44,360 nt of DNA from a virus. Below, in pieces: positions 3,396 through 35,895 of this stretch; the first letter of the stretch is position 1, and each line of letters begins with the position of its first letter. The notes below the pieces were generated by a model, which saw only the letters and a list, made by a program, of their open reading frames with translations, was not told where the DNA came from and made no database searches. The position numbers and the translations under genes were made by a program. The stretch lies in the UHGV virus genome UHGV-0173177. The stretch is one strand, 5' to 3'.

Positions 3396-3618
3396 CAATA
3401 TTACTCCTGTACTCCCGTAACTTCTCCAGACTTTCTATTGCTTCTGCTAAGTCGGTTCCTGTGTCTTTGTGTCCGCGAAGGCCCATACACAACAGCTTCT
3501 TCAATGCGTGCTGTAGCGCCGGGTCGCGTATATCGAAGGCGCGTAGCACATCATAAACGTCTACTGTCATAGTGCTGCCGTGAGTGTTTGTCATTGTGCG
3601 GTTGTATTTATTTGTCAC
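3388..3618 (-). CDS. hypothetical protein (76 aa)
   Basis: ORF in the - strand island; GTG start at 3618 with GAGAG upstream, or the internal ATG at 3594. Confidence 0.45.
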   Translation of the reverse strand: MTNKYNRTMTNTHGSTMTVDVYDVLRAFDIRDPALQHALKKLLCMGLRGHKDTGTDLAEAIESLEKLREYRSNIDE

Positions 3619-3675: not shown

Positions 3676-3833
3676 TCGTTAATGCTGCCTATTTCAAAGA
3701 AGCTGCGATATTTAGGCGAATACATTCTTACGTCGCCGTTCTCTAGGGTGACCCCTTCATATACAGCGCCTACTTCGAATCCATTTTTCTCCGCGTACGG
3801 ACTCACATCGGTGCATTCATACATATCTTTCAT
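3630..3833 (-). CDS. hypothetical protein (67 aa) whose C-terminus is altered by the 25-bp duplication
   Basis: ORF ends ...FKRVRHSQI*; with one repeat copy removed the frame would read ...FKRVNSDK*. Confidence 0.45.
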   Translation of the reverse strand: MKDMYECTDVSPYAEKNGFEVGAVYEGVTLENGDVRMYSPKYRSFFEIGSINESGIARFKRVRHSQI

Positions 3834-4960
3834 CCCAGCATCTCCGGTGAAATAGTTAAACGTGCGACCTCGCCATATTCGGCACTATAGGTAATTACAT
3901 TTGCGCTACGGCCTGACATCCATCCACCGCGCGAGGCGTAGGCGTCTTTAGCCGCCAGGGTGCGGTGTTGCTCAACAATCATGTTACGGCTTTCCACAAT
4001 CTTCTGATGGTGGAGGTGGCCTACGTGGGCGTAGCTGTAAACGCTTTCGCCAAATGCTTTGCGGAACTTGGCAATCATAACCGGTTCGATAGCGTCGAAT
4101 CGTGCCTTATGCCCGTGGTGAAAGAACAGCGTCGTTTTGCCGTGTTGCACCATCTTGTAAACATCTGGCGACGTATCGACGAACACACGAGGCTCATTGT
4201 CGTACAGCGTACTAAACATCTCAGCTAACCAAATCATTCCGCTTTCGTCGTGGTTTCCTTGCACGATAAGCAAGCGAACATTTTTATGCTTAACCAGCGC
4301 CATACCGACAACACGGCGGACCATACGAATCATGTAGCGGACAAGTTTCTGATAGCGAGTGTCCGCATCAAGGGCGTGACCGCTTGCAGGCGTAACGGCA
4401 ACCAGACTGTCGAAGTGCGCGAAGTCGCCCAGCAGGTTAATAACTCCAGTTCCTGCATCCGGCGCTTTCTGGAACGCCGCATCGAACCAGCGAGAAAACA
4501 GGTCTTCCGCAATCTTCATATCCCAGTCGTCGCCACTCTCGTCGGCCCAGGCCAGCATACCAAGATGGAAATCAGATACAGTGTAAAGATTGAGTAGTTT
4601 ATCGTCACGTTTGGTGCGAACGGCTTTAACTGGTACAACGGGAGTAATCTCCGACTTCATGCCTTCGATTACGGCTTTCATCAACTCGACCTGACGTTCA
4701 GCGTCAGTGTCTGTCTTAACCCATTGCAACTTAGTGTTGCCGAACTCGTCCACAAGCGACGACGTTCCTTTAATCTTGTAGCCGTCCGGGACAAGATGGC
4801 TAACGTCACGACCGTGACCTACGCCTTTCTTCGCCAGCTTCGCTTTACGGATACGAATAACGCGGTCTGAGATGCCGTATTTACGGGCGATGTCTACATT
4901 CTTCATCCCGGCGTTCAATTCTTCCTGTAACTGTTCGTCGGTTATTTTCTTCTGGGCCAT
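3830..4960 (-). CDS. metallophosphoesterase (calcineurin-like) with N-terminal helix-turn-helix domain
   Basis: 376 aa; N-terminus DIARKYGISDRVIRIRKAKL is HTH-like; ordered metallophosphatase motifs DFHLG, GDFAHFD, GNHD, HHGH, GHLHH. Confidence 0.6.
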   Translation of the reverse strand: MAQKKITDEQLQEELNAGMKNVDIARKYGISDRVIRIRKAKLAKKGVGHGRDVSHLVPDGYKIKGTSSLVDEFGNTKLQWVKTDTDAERQVELMKAVIEGMKSEITPVVPVKAVRTKRDDKLLNLYTVSDFHLGMLAWADESGDDWDMKIAEDLFSRWFDAAFQKAPDAGTGVINLLGDFAHFDSLVAVTPASGHALDADTRYQKLVRYMIRMVRRVVGMALVKHKNVRLLIVQGNHDESGMIWLAEMFSTLYDNEPRVFVDTSPDVYKMVQHGKTTLFFHHGHKARFDAIEPVMIAKFRKAFGESVYSYAHVGHLHHQKIVESRNMIVEQHRTLAAKDAYASRGGWMSGRSANVITYSAEYGEVARLTISPEMLG

Positions 4961-28599: not shown

Positions 28600-28978
28600 A
28601 CATAATCGCACCTATTGACATTATGAAAATCTTCGTTTAAGGTGCTTCTATATCTTAGTTACTTTGATTCCTGTTCACCTTGTAAAACCGCTTAAAACGC
28701 AGCTGCGCGCAGCGCAAGCAAAGTGTTAAGCGAAAGTTTACTGAACACGAGAATTATCGTAACTTTCCTTCCTAAGTATCTCCGGTTGCCCTGGGCAAGC
28801 TCTATTCACATCGGCAGCATATCTCTTAAGTATCTGATTTTCTTAATGTGCCGTAGATTCGCAACCGTAAAAATGTAACGATTATTGGGCAGGCTTAGGG
28901 CCTGCCCTTTAGTTACCAAGTAATAAGAATAAAGGCACAACCTTCCCAGAAGAATCACAACGGCAACGTAACTATCTC

Positions 28979-29007
28979 TTGCACGCCCCAACATAATAGG
29001 ATACTAT
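28979..29007 (+). promoter_or_regulatory. sigma70-like promoter (class 2: TTGCAC-17-TACTAT) with AATAGGATACTATT palindrome over the -10
   Basis: TTGCAC gccccaacataatagga TACTAT tcactt, followed by leader ACGAGAcagAGGAG and ATG 29042. Confidence 0.55.
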
Positions 29008-29041
29008 TCACTTATCGAAACGAGACAGAGGAGTGAGGGTT

Positions 29042-29233
29042 ATGTTTAAGAAGGGTCAGTTGGTTAAATGCGCCGACGGTAAACACGGTGTGATTGAATT
29101 AAAATCCGCTTTATTTCCGGGAGAGTACCTAGTTACTGTGCAAAAGGTGAGAGGAGTAAATTCGGCGGCATACGTAGCGGAAGAGAATTTAAAACTCATC
29201 GGCAACAATTTTAAATTCAAAGAGGTGAAGTGA
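29042..29233 (+). CDS. hypothetical early protein (63 aa)
   Basis: ATG 29042 with GAGGAG/GAGGG RBS (track start 29033 is a GTG); first gene after the promoter at 28979. Confidence 0.5.
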   Translation: MFKKGQLVKCADGKHGVIELKSALFPGEYLVTVQKVRGVNSAAYVAEENLKLIGNNFKFKEVK

Positions 29234-30512: not shown

Positions 30513-30541
30513 TTGCACGCTAGGATAGAATAGGCTACTAT
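30513..30541 (+). promoter_or_regulatory. sigma70-like promoter (class 2: TTGCAC-17-TACTAT) with AATAGGCTACTATT palindrome over the -10
   Basis: TTGCAC gctaggatagaataggc TACTAT tcattt, followed by leader ACGAGAGGAGAGACAGAAG-ATG (30573). Confidence 0.55.
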
Positions 30542-30572
30542 TCATTTACACGAACGAGAGGAGAGACAGAAG

Positions 30573-30695
30573 ATGTACAGCGAATTTGATTTGTGGGACG
30601 TGGTTCTTATGTGGGCCTCCGGGGAAGATGTTGTTTGCGACGGCGACACATTAAGTATCATATGCGAGGAGCCAGAAGATGTTCCTGGAATGTAA
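30573..30695 (+). CDS. small acidic protein (40 aa)
   Basis: Hand-translated; AGGAG RBS; ends …CEEPEDVPGM overlapping the next start inside a duplicated 16-bp junction GAGGAGCCAGAAGATG. Confidence 0.35.
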   Translation: MYSEFDLWDVVLMWASGEDVVCDGDTLSIICEEPEDVPGM

Positions 30696-32841: not shown

Positions 32842-33304
32842 TGGATTGCATTTCACTGCCGCATTTGAGGGGTTCCGTGGAACTGCGTATCGTGCTACCC
32901 CGAATGAGAAGTACCTGACTATTGGTTACGGGCACTACGGGCCAGACGTAACGCCCGGAAAGACCATCACGCCGGGACAAGGACTCCTGCTACTGAATCG
33001 CGATATGGCTAAGGCCGTAGCTGCGGTTGACGCAGCAGCACACCATTCACTGGCACAGGCGCAGTTCGATGCAGTGTGCGACCTGGTGTATAACGCGGGT
33101 GCTGGTGTGATTGCAGCTACTACAGGCACGGGTAAGGCGCTGCGTTCCGGTGATATTGCGACTCTGCGGGATAAGCTGGCGCTGTTCATCAACCAGAACG
33201 GCAAACCGTTACTTGGCCTGCGTCGCCGTACAGCCGGTCGTTTGGCGCTGTTCGACGGTAAACCGTGGCGGGAGGCGGAAGCTATCGGGAGGGCTGTTAA
33301 ATGA
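32804..33304 (+). CDS. endolysin, phage lysozyme (GH24-like)
   Basis: N-terminal catalytic region …AAFEGFRGTAYRATPNEKYLTIGYGH… and …QAQFDAVCDLVYNAG… resemble the P22 gp19 / T4-lysozyme family; start trimmed to ATG 32804. Confidence 0.75.
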   Translation: MEDISVSRNISDNGLHFTAAFEGFRGTAYRATPNEKYLTIGYGHYGPDVTPGKTITPGQGLLLLNRDMAKAVAAVDAAAHHSLAQAQFDAVCDLVYNAGAGVIAATTGTGKALRSGDIATLRDKLALFINQNGKPLLGLRRRTAGRLALFDGKPWREAEAIGRAVK

Positions 33305-33431
33305 TGGACGAATATGAAGGCGTTTAGTAAACTTATCCCTACGCTGTTTGTGCTTGCATACTAAGCCCCGGTAAACCCGAAGCAGCAGCCCAAGCGGTGG
33401 AGACTGCGTAGGGTTCAAGGGCTTATGACCG

Positions 33432-33462
33432 AAACCCGGACCGCGAATCCGGGTTTTATTTT
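33432..33462 (+). terminator. intrinsic terminator after the lysis cassette
   Basis: AAACCCGGA-ccgcgaa-TCCGGGTTT followed by TATTTT. Confidence 0.6.
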
Positions 33463-33467
33463 ACCAA

Positions 33468-33568
33468 TTGACACCTGAGACCAATCAGACGATACTTAAA
33501 TCACCTCCTGTTCCATCCCTCTGCTCTCCAGTTTTATCCCGGCACTGACCCAGCCGGGATTTTTTTTA
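33468..33568 (+). ncRNA. candidate small RNA unit: promoter-like element, ~65-nt transcript and intrinsic terminator, no ORF
   Basis: TTGACA(33468)-17-GATACT(33491); transcribed region contains CACCUCCUGUUCC; terminator CCCGGC-actgaccca-GCCGGG + T8 at 33538-33568. Confidence 0.3.
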
Positions 33569-33589: not shown

Positions 33590-33618
33590 TTGACTATTAC
33601 CCTCGACCTTATTATATT
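33590..33618 (+). promoter_or_regulatory. sigma70-like promoter (TTGACT-17-TATATT) for the operon starting at 33652
   Basis: TTGACT attaccctcgaccttat TATATT, followed by leader …ACGAGAacGGAGtagagaag-ATG. Confidence 0.5.
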
Positions 33619-33651
33619 TACTCCATCGACAACGAGAACGGAGTAGAGAAG

Positions 33652-33849
33652 ATGAGTAACGTATCGACGATAGAAATAACCGAGGAACTTGAAGCTAAAT
33701 GCATCGCGTCTGCTATGGGTGGGGATTCGGTGGAAAAACTACAGATGAGGGCCGCTGCGGGCTACATACGTAGAGCTAATTCCGCGATGACTGATGTTTT
33801 ACGTAAACGTTACCTCGTGAAAGCGTTAGAAATCCTGGAGAATAACTAA
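33652..33849 (+). CDS. hypothetical protein (65 aa)
   Basis: First ORF after the promoter at 33590; GGAG RBS. Confidence 0.5.
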   Translation: MSNVSTIEITEELEAKCIASAMGGDSVEKLQMRAAAGYIRRANSAMTDVLRKRYLVKALEILENN

Positions 33850-34979: not shown

Positions 34980-35210
34980 ATGTTTCACGAACTAAAGATA
35001 TTACCTGAGCATTTTGAACCTGTTATGGTAGGAATCAAGCTGGCGGAACTGCGATTAAACGACCGCGATTTCAAGGAAGACGACACTCTGTGCCTGCGAG
35101 AATACGAAAACGGTGAATACACAGGCCGTATCGTTTACCGCCGCGTTATTCATGTTGCGGACGTAGGTGCTTACCTGCCTGGATACGTGCTATTAAGTAT
35201 GGAGGATTGA
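34980..35210 (+). CDS. ASCH-like (DUF3850-type) small protein
   Basis: MFHELKILPEHFEPVMVGIKLAELRLNDRDFKEDDTLCLREYENGEYTGR… matches the recalled DUF3850 pattern. Confidence 0.45.
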   Translation: MFHELKILPEHFEPVMVGIKLAELRLNDRDFKEDDTLCLREYENGEYTGRIVYRRVIHVADVGAYLPGYVLLSMED

Positions 35211-35778: not shown

Positions 35779-35801
35779 AGCCCTCTACGGAGGGCTTTTC
35801 T
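35779..35801 (+). terminator. intrinsic terminator separating the small-gene block from the packaging/head operon
   Basis: AGCCCTC-tacg-GAGGGCT followed by TTTTC. Confidence 0.6.
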
Positions 35802-35830
35802 GTACATCCAGCCCAATCCCCTTATATAAT
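35801..35830 (+). promoter_or_regulatory. candidate promoter for the packaging/head operon (perfect -10 TATAAT, weak -35)
   Basis: TATAAT at 35825-35830 with TGTACA 18 bp upstream; inverted repeats CGTCTGA…TCAGACG at 35851-35878 lie in the leader. Confidence 0.3.
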
Positions 35831-35895
35831 CCCTTTAGACGCGTAGGGCGCGTCTGATGCGCTCTGATGGTCAGACGCATATGTCAGGGGGTTAT

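Follow-up and report, generated by a model that had tools for sequence, protein, structure and literature searches.

A conserved, non-coding promoter-to-terminator unit beside the endolysin gene of Guernseyvirinae phages, a candidate Hfq-type small-RNA gene

The stretch of DNA analyzed here, referred to as the window, is the virus genome UHGV-0173177 (44,360 nt), a complete Kagunavirus genome (subfamily Guernseyvirinae; K1G/K1ind-like E. coli siphophages). Downstream of its endolysin gene there is a short element formed by a promoter (P1), a predicted transcript of about 65 nt and an intrinsic terminator (33468-33567), which comparison with related phages indicates to be a conserved, autonomous, non-coding promoter-to-terminator unit. 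It is likely that this unit is transcribed and selected as an RNA. The complete explanation that we prefer, i.e., a Guernseyvirinae small-RNA gene whose Hfq-type product pairs with ribosome-binding sites, has about an even chance of being right. A preliminary description of this DNA, made from its sequence alone, had proposed such an autonomous unit encoding a small RNA of about 65 nt, and the proposal is borne out by the selection seen on the promoter hexamers and their spacing and by a conservation that restarts at the predicted transcription start. The proposed size was roughly right, and we have adjusted it to 63-65 nt counted from a predicted +1 at about A33503.

The unit was found in 445 phage records. 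Relatives were gathered from IMG/VR, by means of DNA patterns and the endolysin protein, as well as from GenBank phages; a degenerate pattern scan of viral contigs gave mostly chance matches, and a profile was used as a filter. The 401 nt around the unit have matches in 320 phage records with 80-97% identity. The gene order of the window is the same as that of the annotated relatives fEg-Eco06 and Bas76, and the unit sits in a gap of about 350 nt between the endolysin stop at 33304 and the ATG at 33652, which opens a series of a dozen small rightward genes located ahead of the terminase and structural genes. Among 185,579 bacterial species genomes we have found no chromosomal homologue, the true matches being only phage-like contigs in one Bacteroidota assembly. 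These contigs carry the Jerseyvirus version of the element and belong to the isolate Taishania pollutisoli strain CZZ-1 (scaffolds L237, L240, and L249), where they most likely represent contamination of the assembly with phage DNA.

The P1 promoter (33468-33496, plus strand) consists of TTGACA (33468-33473), a spacer of 17 nt and GATACT (33491-33496), just as had been described, and fits 10 of the 12 consensus positions. GATACT is also the -10 hexamer of the strong T7 A1 promoter. A scan of 6 kb yielded seven promoter-like sites against 6.1 expected, P1 and the promoter of the next operon (P2) being two of the three 10/12 matches among the seven. Since a single promoter-like match is not above chance, the case for a transcription unit rests on comparison. 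Over 31 distinct versions of the promoter region, each of the two hexamers has a mean column entropy of 0.03, versus 0.75 in the spacer, 0.83 in the six bases following the -10 hexamer (the discriminator) and 1.22 upstream, and the spacing is 17 nt in every version. An alignment of the window phage with the Jerseyvirus Shelanagig shows an identity of 100% for the hexamers, compared with 53% for the spacer and 33% for the discriminator. In one relative (L027), the upstream DNA including the promoter has been replaced, and a new TTGACA-17-CATACT lies at the same place, joined a few bases before ACCUCCUG. These data indicate that the P1 hexamers and their spacing are under selection, and the comparative pattern of the unit goes far beyond chance.

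The opposite end of the unit is the intrinsic terminator (33536-33567, plus strand), supported by both fold and covariation as the strong terminator with eight T that the preliminary description had recognized. Its 8-bp G+C stem is formed by AUCCCGGC (33536-33543) and GCCGGGAU (33553-33560) around the 9-nt loop ACUGACCCA, and the eight T are found at 33560-33567. A simple terminator scan missed this hairpin because the loop limit of the scan was 8 nt. In RNA folding, the hairpin is the only structure (-14.3 kcal/mol, z = -2.5), the 35 nt ahead of it being unpaired. The pairing is kept in 99% of alignment cells (26 distinct sequences from Kagunavirus, Jerseyvirus, and Cornellvirus), and four of the eight pairs show double-sided changes (A-U to G-C, U-A to C-G, G-C to A-U, and C-G to U-A), compared with no compensatory pair in any of six slid controls. 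The hairpin is 81% identical between Kagunavirus and Jerseyvirus, and its loop motif CUGACC is conserved between genera, which is not needed by a plain terminator. The run following the hairpin has at least 7 T in all three genera and ranges from 7 to 14 T across relatives. In addition, the annotators of Shelanagig independently marked this hairpin as a terminator.

Between both elements lies the body of the predicted small RNA (33503-33567, plus strand; 5'-ACCUCCUGUUCCAUCCCUCUGCUCUCCAGUUUUAUCCCGGCACUGACCCAGCCGGGAUUUUUUUU), whose 3' end should fall within the T-run. Conservation restarts at the predicted +1, which is A33503 in Kagunavirus and the G of GCUCCUG in Jerseyvirus; in the latter genus, two unrelated discriminators (AAACCT and GGTGTC) are found ahead of the same RNA. 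The first 33 nt (33503-33535) form a C/U-rich body that is single-stranded in the minimum-free-energy and consensus folds. It contains three conserved blocks, i.e., CUCCU (33506-33510), CAUCCCUCU (33514-33522), and GCUCUCC (33523-33529), the last of which reads (G)CUC(UC)C across relatives, and it ends with a U-rich tract, GUUUU (33531-33535), which borders the hairpin on its 5' side. The UUU adjoining the hairpin is invariant in the 26 distinct sequences of the three genera. The RNA body is 67% identical between Kagunavirus and Jerseyvirus, versus 37-46% at synonymous sites; for the window phage and Shelanagig, the fourfold-type synonymous sites of the adjacent endolysin gene are 37% identical. 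This difference shows that purifying selection acts on the RNA. The CCUCCU to which attention had been drawn is present (CCTCCT at 33505-33510), but it is not invariant, being ACUCCUUG in some Kagunaviruses and GCUCCUG in Jerseyvirus, and the pieces that are conserved are CUCCU and CAUCCCUCU. A boxA/nut-like reading of UGCUCUCC plus hairpin was discarded: the motif is not conserved (UACUCUCC, UGCGCUCC, or UAGCUCC in relatives), and the hairpin is a terminator.

One relative (L017, 3683-3785) carries a 100-nt perfect-stem hairpin inserted directly after the +1, with the C/U-rich body and the terminator unchanged. Perfect inverted repeats, 13-14 nt long (GTTAGGCGAGTAGT and ACTACTCGCCTAAC), flank the insertion, the fold of the whole RNA has a z of -3.7, and the insertion might be either MITE-like or an added 5' RNA domain.

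Regarding the coding potential, the absence of a meaningful open reading frame (ORF) that had been noted holds after comparison. The only ORFs are a 26-aa plus-strand frame, which starts at a TTG within the -35 hexamer, upstream of the predicted transcription start, and a minus-strand frame of 28 aa; AUG, GUG, and UUG are all absent from the predicted RNA. The length of the minus-strand frame shifts with the T-run (6, 15, 28, 32, or 40 aa among close relatives), and the frames are interrupted between genera by indels of 1, 2, and 4 nt; no ORF over the unit is conserved among the relatives compared. Public records call small hypothetical proteins over the RNA gene, such as Bas76_0074 and Bas76_0075 (L002, 3162-3398) and Shelanagig gp59 (L203, 1375-1578), in frames that lie on the minus strand or overlap the 3' end of the endolysin gene and are not conserved. 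For annotation this means that the small hypothetical proteins called across the unit are probably artefacts, and the RNA gene is, as judged from these comparisons, non-coding.

The predicted RNA is built like an enterobacterial Hfq-type small RNA. As summarized in PMC5558911 from Ishikawa et al. (2012), the minimal Hfq module comprises a U-rich tract, a Rho-independent terminator hairpin next to it and at least 7 U thereafter. The sequence of the unit presents an 8-bp G+C stem with eight T, as well as the tract GUUUUAU (33531-33537) leading into the hairpin, and on these grounds we predict that the RNA binds Hfq. The conserved promoter and the coincidence of the predicted start with a conservation boundary point, in turn, to an independent small-RNA gene. 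At the gathering threshold, Rfam 15 gave no match in the window and 13 related loci, and permissive E-values returned only sub-threshold matches driven by the terminator. The best of them was RF02278, Betaproteobacteria toxic small RNA (23.8 bits versus a gathering threshold of 50), a family whose proposed mode of action involves anti-Shine-Dalgarno motifs. We have rejected membership, given that the alignment covers mainly a generic G+C hairpin and U-tail plus UGCUCUCC and the host clade differs, and what is left is a functional analogy between short RNAs made of pyrimidine-rich motifs and a terminator. The RF02278 family is toxic when cloned in E. coli (PMC4603805).

Several known systems resemble the unit in part. 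CyaR is an Hfq-dependent small RNA whose seed contains CACCUCCU, and the RNA described here shares with CyaR-type RNAs a stand-alone sigma-70 promoter-to-terminator gene (60-90 nt), a single-stranded seed complementary to ribosome-binding sites, a U-rich tract and at least 7 U; unlike them, it is encoded by a virulent phage, has neither Rfam homology nor a chromosomal homologue, and its Hfq binding is a prediction. Type I 3'-UTR-derived small RNAs, of which DapZ and MicL are examples, are similar to the unit of most relatives, where the promoter overlaps the end of the endolysin gene and the terminator is common with the upstream mRNA. In the window, unlike in this type, the mRNA and the RNA gene are kept apart by an inserted terminator (33432-33465), and the latter becomes free-standing. 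The P4 CI RNA masks the leader of a phage operon by imperfect, interrupted complementarity, as the c4 RNA does. The c4 RNA of phages P1/P7 acts in this way on the ribosome-binding region or leader of its operon (PMC12197685). Unlike c4 and CI, which are processed from the leader of the operon that they control in temperate elements, the RNA described here has its own promoter, is encoded by a virulent phage and gives no match to the C4 family of Rfam. Lambda OOP and P22 sar are phage promoter-to-terminator RNAs of 68-77 nt that repress phage translation (PMC12197685). They are cis-antisense to the gene they control, in contrast to the present RNA, which has no opposite-strand gene, since the flanking genes are all on the plus strand and the minus-strand frame is not conserved, and any target would lie at some distance, about 3 kb on the upstream side or 110 nt on the downstream side.

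A 2025 review of phage small RNAs includes OOP, sar, c4, and others, mostly from temperate phages (PMC12197685). Our literature search found no paper linking Kagunavirus with a small RNA, and phage records leave the RNA gene blank or mis-call tiny ORFs there. With no Rfam family at threshold, no Kagunavirus small-RNA paper and no chromosomal homologue, the unit appears to be an undescribed member of a familiar class, that of phage-encoded, Hfq-type, promoter-to-terminator small RNAs.

The preferred mechanism for this RNA is pairing with ribosome-binding sites, those of the phage early leaders foremost, which is plausible, of modest strength and weakly significant by the sequence tests given below. 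CUCCU, CAUCCCUCU, and (G)CUC(UC)C are all complementary to GGAG-type Shine-Dalgarno sequences, and the 5' ACCUCCU of the RNA is the same as the anti-Shine-Dalgarno sequence of the 16S rRNA. The pairing suggested in the preliminary description would thus plausibly suit the three conserved CU-rich motifs and the purine-rich early leaders. Near-consensus promoters with homologous leaders ending in ACGAGAGGAGAGACAGAAGAUG are found at 29020 (+), 30554 (+), 33632 (+, P2), and 25499 (-). The spans of this sigma-70 promoter-leader family are 28975-29044 (+), 30513-30575 (+), 33590-33654 (+), and about 25540-25480 (-); the leaders, of about 30 nt, end in ACGAGA(G)GGAG...AGAAGATG and are conserved up to the ATG while the first gene varies by phage. 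Such a pattern is suggestive of portable promoter-leader cassettes, by which the early operons are probably defined. 

The best candidate partner of the RNA appears to be leader a (GGAGAGACAGAAGATG, 30560-30575; ATG at 30573), which follows an early-type promoter, TTGCAC-17-TACTAT (the whole at 30513-30575, plus strand), and gives a predicted duplex of -25.1 kcal/mol. Positions 33514-33529 of the RNA (CAUCCCUCUGCUCUCC) are an interrupted reverse complement of leader a. In Kagunavirus, the leader GGAGAG-A-CAGA-A-GAUG faces the RNA complement GGAGAG-CAGA-GG-GAUG, with 14 pairs over the Shine-Dalgarno sequence and the AUG, and in Jerseyvirus, the leader GGAGCUA-A-GAG-AA-AUGAAUAA faces GGAGCUA-GAG-GG-AUGAAUAA, with 18 pairs and the same bulge and internal loop. 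The genus-specific differences are therefore mirrored between the RNA and leader a. Jerseyvirus RNAs form duplexes of -23 to -29 kcal/mol with their own leaders and of -15 to -22 kcal/mol with Kagunavirus leaders, the cognate preference being weaker for Kagunavirus RNAs. In Shelanagig, leader a comes first among 66 initiation regions, and no other site on the plus strand is more complementary to the RNA; the four early leaders of fEg-Eco06 rank 4, 7, 8, and 23 among 76 initiation regions.

The leader of P2 deserves a separate comment, as the preliminary description had offered the alternative that the unit is itself a leader for the promoter at 33590. This interpretation fails because sequence upstream of a promoter cannot be its leader. 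P2 (TTGACT-17-TATATT, 33590-33618, plus strand; 10/12 consensus positions) is a separate conserved promoter, located outside the RNA in a conserved P1-RNA-terminator-P2 module, with hexamers 100% identical and a spacer 65% identical between genera, and it has its own leader with a ribosome-binding site (ACGAGAACGGAGTAGAGAAGATG, 33625-33654; ATG at 33652). This leader is a candidate pairing partner (-20.7 kcal/mol with the RNA), and we have discarded it as the favoured target, the homologous site ranking 8 of 76 in fEg-Eco06 and 19 of 66 in Shelanagig, not above other leaders.

A number of results weigh against pairing with the early leaders, and against the explanation as a whole. Much of the complementarity between the RNA and the leaders is compositional. 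With dinucleotide-shuffled RNAs, the preference for early leaders has a p of about 0.08 in Kagunavirus and of 0.017 in Jerseyvirus. Scans of the window genome (sliding duplex energy and Smith-Waterman on the complement) gave a continuum of scores with no leader as an outlier and with the best matches inside coding regions. Within a genus no fine-scale covariation between RNA and leaders was seen, and the mirroring between Kagunavirus and Jerseyvirus amounts to one evolutionary event. An anti-Shine-Dalgarno motif is missing from the Cornellvirus RNA (AUUCCACCCAGCCAGCCUUU plus hairpin), which, scanned against its own genome, showed no outstanding complementary site and none at an initiation region, so that leader pairing, if real, would not be the ancestral function shared by the three genera. 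On the host side, a BLAST search of the complement in 5,426 E. coli genomes, a method by which short seeds cannot be assessed, returned one marginal match and no complement of at least 11 nt. Finally, the single Kagunavirus RNA-seq paper, on a time course of vB_Eco_K1B4 (PMC12645636), gives genes only and is silent on this gap; transcripts as short as this one are lost from standard libraries.

The model that we infer for the transcript itself, its binding to Hfq, its targets and the regulatory outcome would be as follows. The host sigma-70 RNA polymerase would start from P1 near A33503 and stop at the hairpin and T8 (33536-33567), freeing a non-coding RNA of about 65 nt. Its 3' U-rich tract, G+C hairpin and at least 7 U would serve as the Hfq-binding module, and the single-stranded CU-rich motifs would pair with purine-rich ribosome-binding sites, blocking translation initiation. 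The likeliest partners would be the leaders of the phage's own early-type operons (consensus ACGAGAGGAGAGACAGAAGAUG), with 33514-33529 covering the Shine-Dalgarno sequence and the AUG of leader a, and the 5' ACCUCCU could also hit host mRNAs with strong Shine-Dalgarno sites. In a second role, the hairpin would end transcription of the lysis operon and shield P2 from read-through. 

A more daring version of this model sees in the RNA a degenerate copy, in inverted orientation, of the early-leader module of the phage (Shine-Dalgarno sequence plus AUG), driven by a strong promoter. The RNA would co-evolve with the leaders and, on accumulating, would shut off the translation of several early operons simultaneously, possibly also damping host mRNAs that have strong ribosome-binding sites via ACCUCCU. 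We regard this version as speculative and rather improbable; if true, it would provide a virulent phage with an RNA-only switch from early to late expression.

The second role of the hairpin leads to the strongest of the competing explanations, according to which the unit is a terminator or insulator with an accessory promoter and produces no trans-acting RNA; P1 would add read-through or modulate P2 locally (polymerase occupancy, supercoiling), and the short RNA would be a by-product. In most relatives the homology begins exactly at 33468, and the endolysin stop overlaps the -35 hexamer or lies within 2 nt of it (...GGTTGACA), the hairpin being the sole terminator of the lysis operon; in Cornellvirus, the last endolysin codons contain the -35 hexamer, and the -10 hexamer directly follows the stop. 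Formally, the RNA of relatives with the stop at the -35 counts as a 3'-end-derived small RNA that has a promoter of its own. The block P1-terminator-ATCT-P2 is kept across the three genera, and the 9-nt loop, bigger than in ideal terminators, may leak and possibly allows some read-through into P2, which also counts against a discrete small RNA. However, a near-consensus promoter 40 nt upstream is not required for termination alone, and P1 is kept even where the sequence has been replaced, as in L027. Likewise, neither the 67% identity of the single-stranded body between genera, against a neutral baseline of 37%, nor the conservation of the loop and the UUU tract would be required of a by-product. 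The preliminary description had also considered that the terminator might act only on read-through from the upstream operon; it is indeed the only endolysin-side terminator in most relatives, but this reading leaves the conserved promoter in front of it unexplained.

The window itself bears on this question, because it has a separate terminator for the lysis operon and yet the unit is retained unchanged. This upstream intrinsic terminator (33432-33465, plus strand) is formed by AAACCCGGA and TCCGGGTTT (stem 33432-33440 with 33448-33456) followed by TTTTATTTT. It is part of an insertion (33305-33467) carried by 7 of the 38 loci compared, and 42 of the 445 phage records cover at least 80% of the query, i.e., the minority with the insertion. 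Thus, the location just after a lysis-operon terminator, as originally described, is true for this phage and a minority of relatives, but not for most of them, which have the -35 at the endolysin stop. With these points taken together, we consider the insulator explanation unlikely, though ahead of the other alternatives.

The insertion has, downstream of a tiny frame (ATGATGGACGAATATGAAGGCGTTTAG) overlapping the endolysin stop, a hairpin (UAAGCCC...GGGCUUA) as well as its own terminator. Its fold z is only -1.7, and it might represent either a remnant or a second non-coding RNA. Other relatives also have variable sequences at this place. Cornellvirus-like relatives (L035, L038, L039, L046, L048, and L049; about 3490-3600 of each) carry, in the interval from the promoter at the endolysin stop to a conserved 3' module (AAAUUCCA..CAGCCAGC..UUU, hairpin, U8-10), a non-coding cargo whose length varies from 0 to 190 nt. 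FSL SP-031 has no cargo, giving an RNA of about 48 nt, and L039 has about 190 nt of cargo with a fold z of -2.6. The homologous Cornellvirus module has the form UUCCA...CCAG...UUU, hairpin, U8-10, and a scan with its pattern found no further true loci. The slot at the endolysin stop looks like a hot spot for non-coding RNA innovation.

The preferred Hfq-type pairing RNA has to be weighed as well against a decoy for a protein, i.e., an abundant, C-rich, G-poor, unstructured RNA that would titrate Rho (as rut-like YC-rich RNA), Hfq, or ribosomal protein S1. What the Kagunavirus, Jerseyvirus, and Cornellvirus RNAs have in common is precisely C-richness, G-poverty, lack of structure and the Hfq-type 3' module, and not the anti-Shine-Dalgarno motif, and no specific target stands out in any genome scanned. 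On the other hand, the invariant blocks (CAUCCCUCU, UUCCA, and the loop CUGACC) go beyond composition, 33 nt are short for a Rho loading site, and the proposal stands on inference; we consider it improbable.

Still less probable is a late leader of the lambda PR'/6S type, in which P1 would give a terminated product until a phage antiterminator permits read-through into the terminase and structural genes. The architecture is that of the P22/HK620 type, where TTGACT-17-TAAATT produces a terminated RNA of about 60 nt, and the unit resembles the PR'-proximal leader of lambdoid phages (lambda 6S RNA and its short HK620/P22 version) in having a strong promoter with a terminator some 60 nt on. In a more distant relative (L047), the terminator found in the slot (3806-3836) is identical in 31 of 31 positions to the terminator located immediately past PR'/qut in lambdoid or P22-like phages such as HK620, HK97, mEpX1, and Emek. 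The same was noted in Pantoea phage AH01. It appears that a terminator module has moved between the late-control regions of temperate phages and these virulent phages. Further terminators also exist downstream, such as the one at 35781-35803 (AGCCCTC TACG GAGGGCT TTTCTGT) before the small terminase gene. 

Nevertheless, unlike the lambdoid leader, the unit lies after and not before the lysis genes, and another strong promoter follows at once: the conserved P2 lies 22 nt beyond the terminator, so that read-through from P1 would be superfluous. Searches of 20 flanking small proteins (Pfam on 10 downstream and PHROGs on 10 upstream) detected no Q-like or other antiterminator, and the annotation of fEg-Eco06 lists no Q-family member; some small proteins have no assigned function. 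None of the hexamers in 33503-33527 (+1 to +25) combines an A at position 2 with a T at position 6, and hence the sigma-dependent pause element required by Q is absent. Moreover, the small terminase gene has its own promoter-like site (TGTACA-18-TATAAT), and the terminator at 35781-35803 ends the P2 operon of small genes.

The least credible alternative, a micro-protein encoded by the 26-aa plus-strand frame or by the 28- to 40-aa minus-strand frame annotated in Bas76, can be set aside, as far as the sequence shows, despite the existence of these ORFs and the hypothetical proteins called over the region in Bas76 and Shelanagig, given the start of the first frame in the -35 hexamer of an RNA without start codons and the variable length and lack of conservation of the second.

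Some further observations concern the neighborhood of the unit. A search for tRNA and tmRNA genes found none, and a reading of the region as a replication origin or primer was rejected, no iterons or repeats being found around the unit. The operon directly downstream of the RNA gene encodes a 76-aa DUF3850/ASCH-like protein with a putative RNA-binding fold (34980-35207), and relatives annotate in this operon a T7 Gp2-like RNA polymerase inhibitor. On the 3' side of the terminator at 35781-35803, the TGTACA-18-TATAAT site is accompanied by a perfect inverted repeat (AGACGCG-TAGGG-CGCGTCT) directly before the small terminase gene (region 35781-35856). A similar repeat is present in Shelanagig, and it may be a control site of the late promoter or a packaging-related structure.

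Guernseyvirinae (Kagunavirus, Jerseyvirus, and Cornellvirus) comprise common virulent phages, infecting E. coli and Salmonella, that have been widely isolated for therapy and food biocontrol and whose regulation is almost unknown, and few regulatory RNAs are known from virulent phages. The slot between the endolysin stop and the early promoter carries different non-coding cargo in related phages. The unit described here, present in hundreds of genomes, is a compact candidate for an RNA-based control of phage or host translation.

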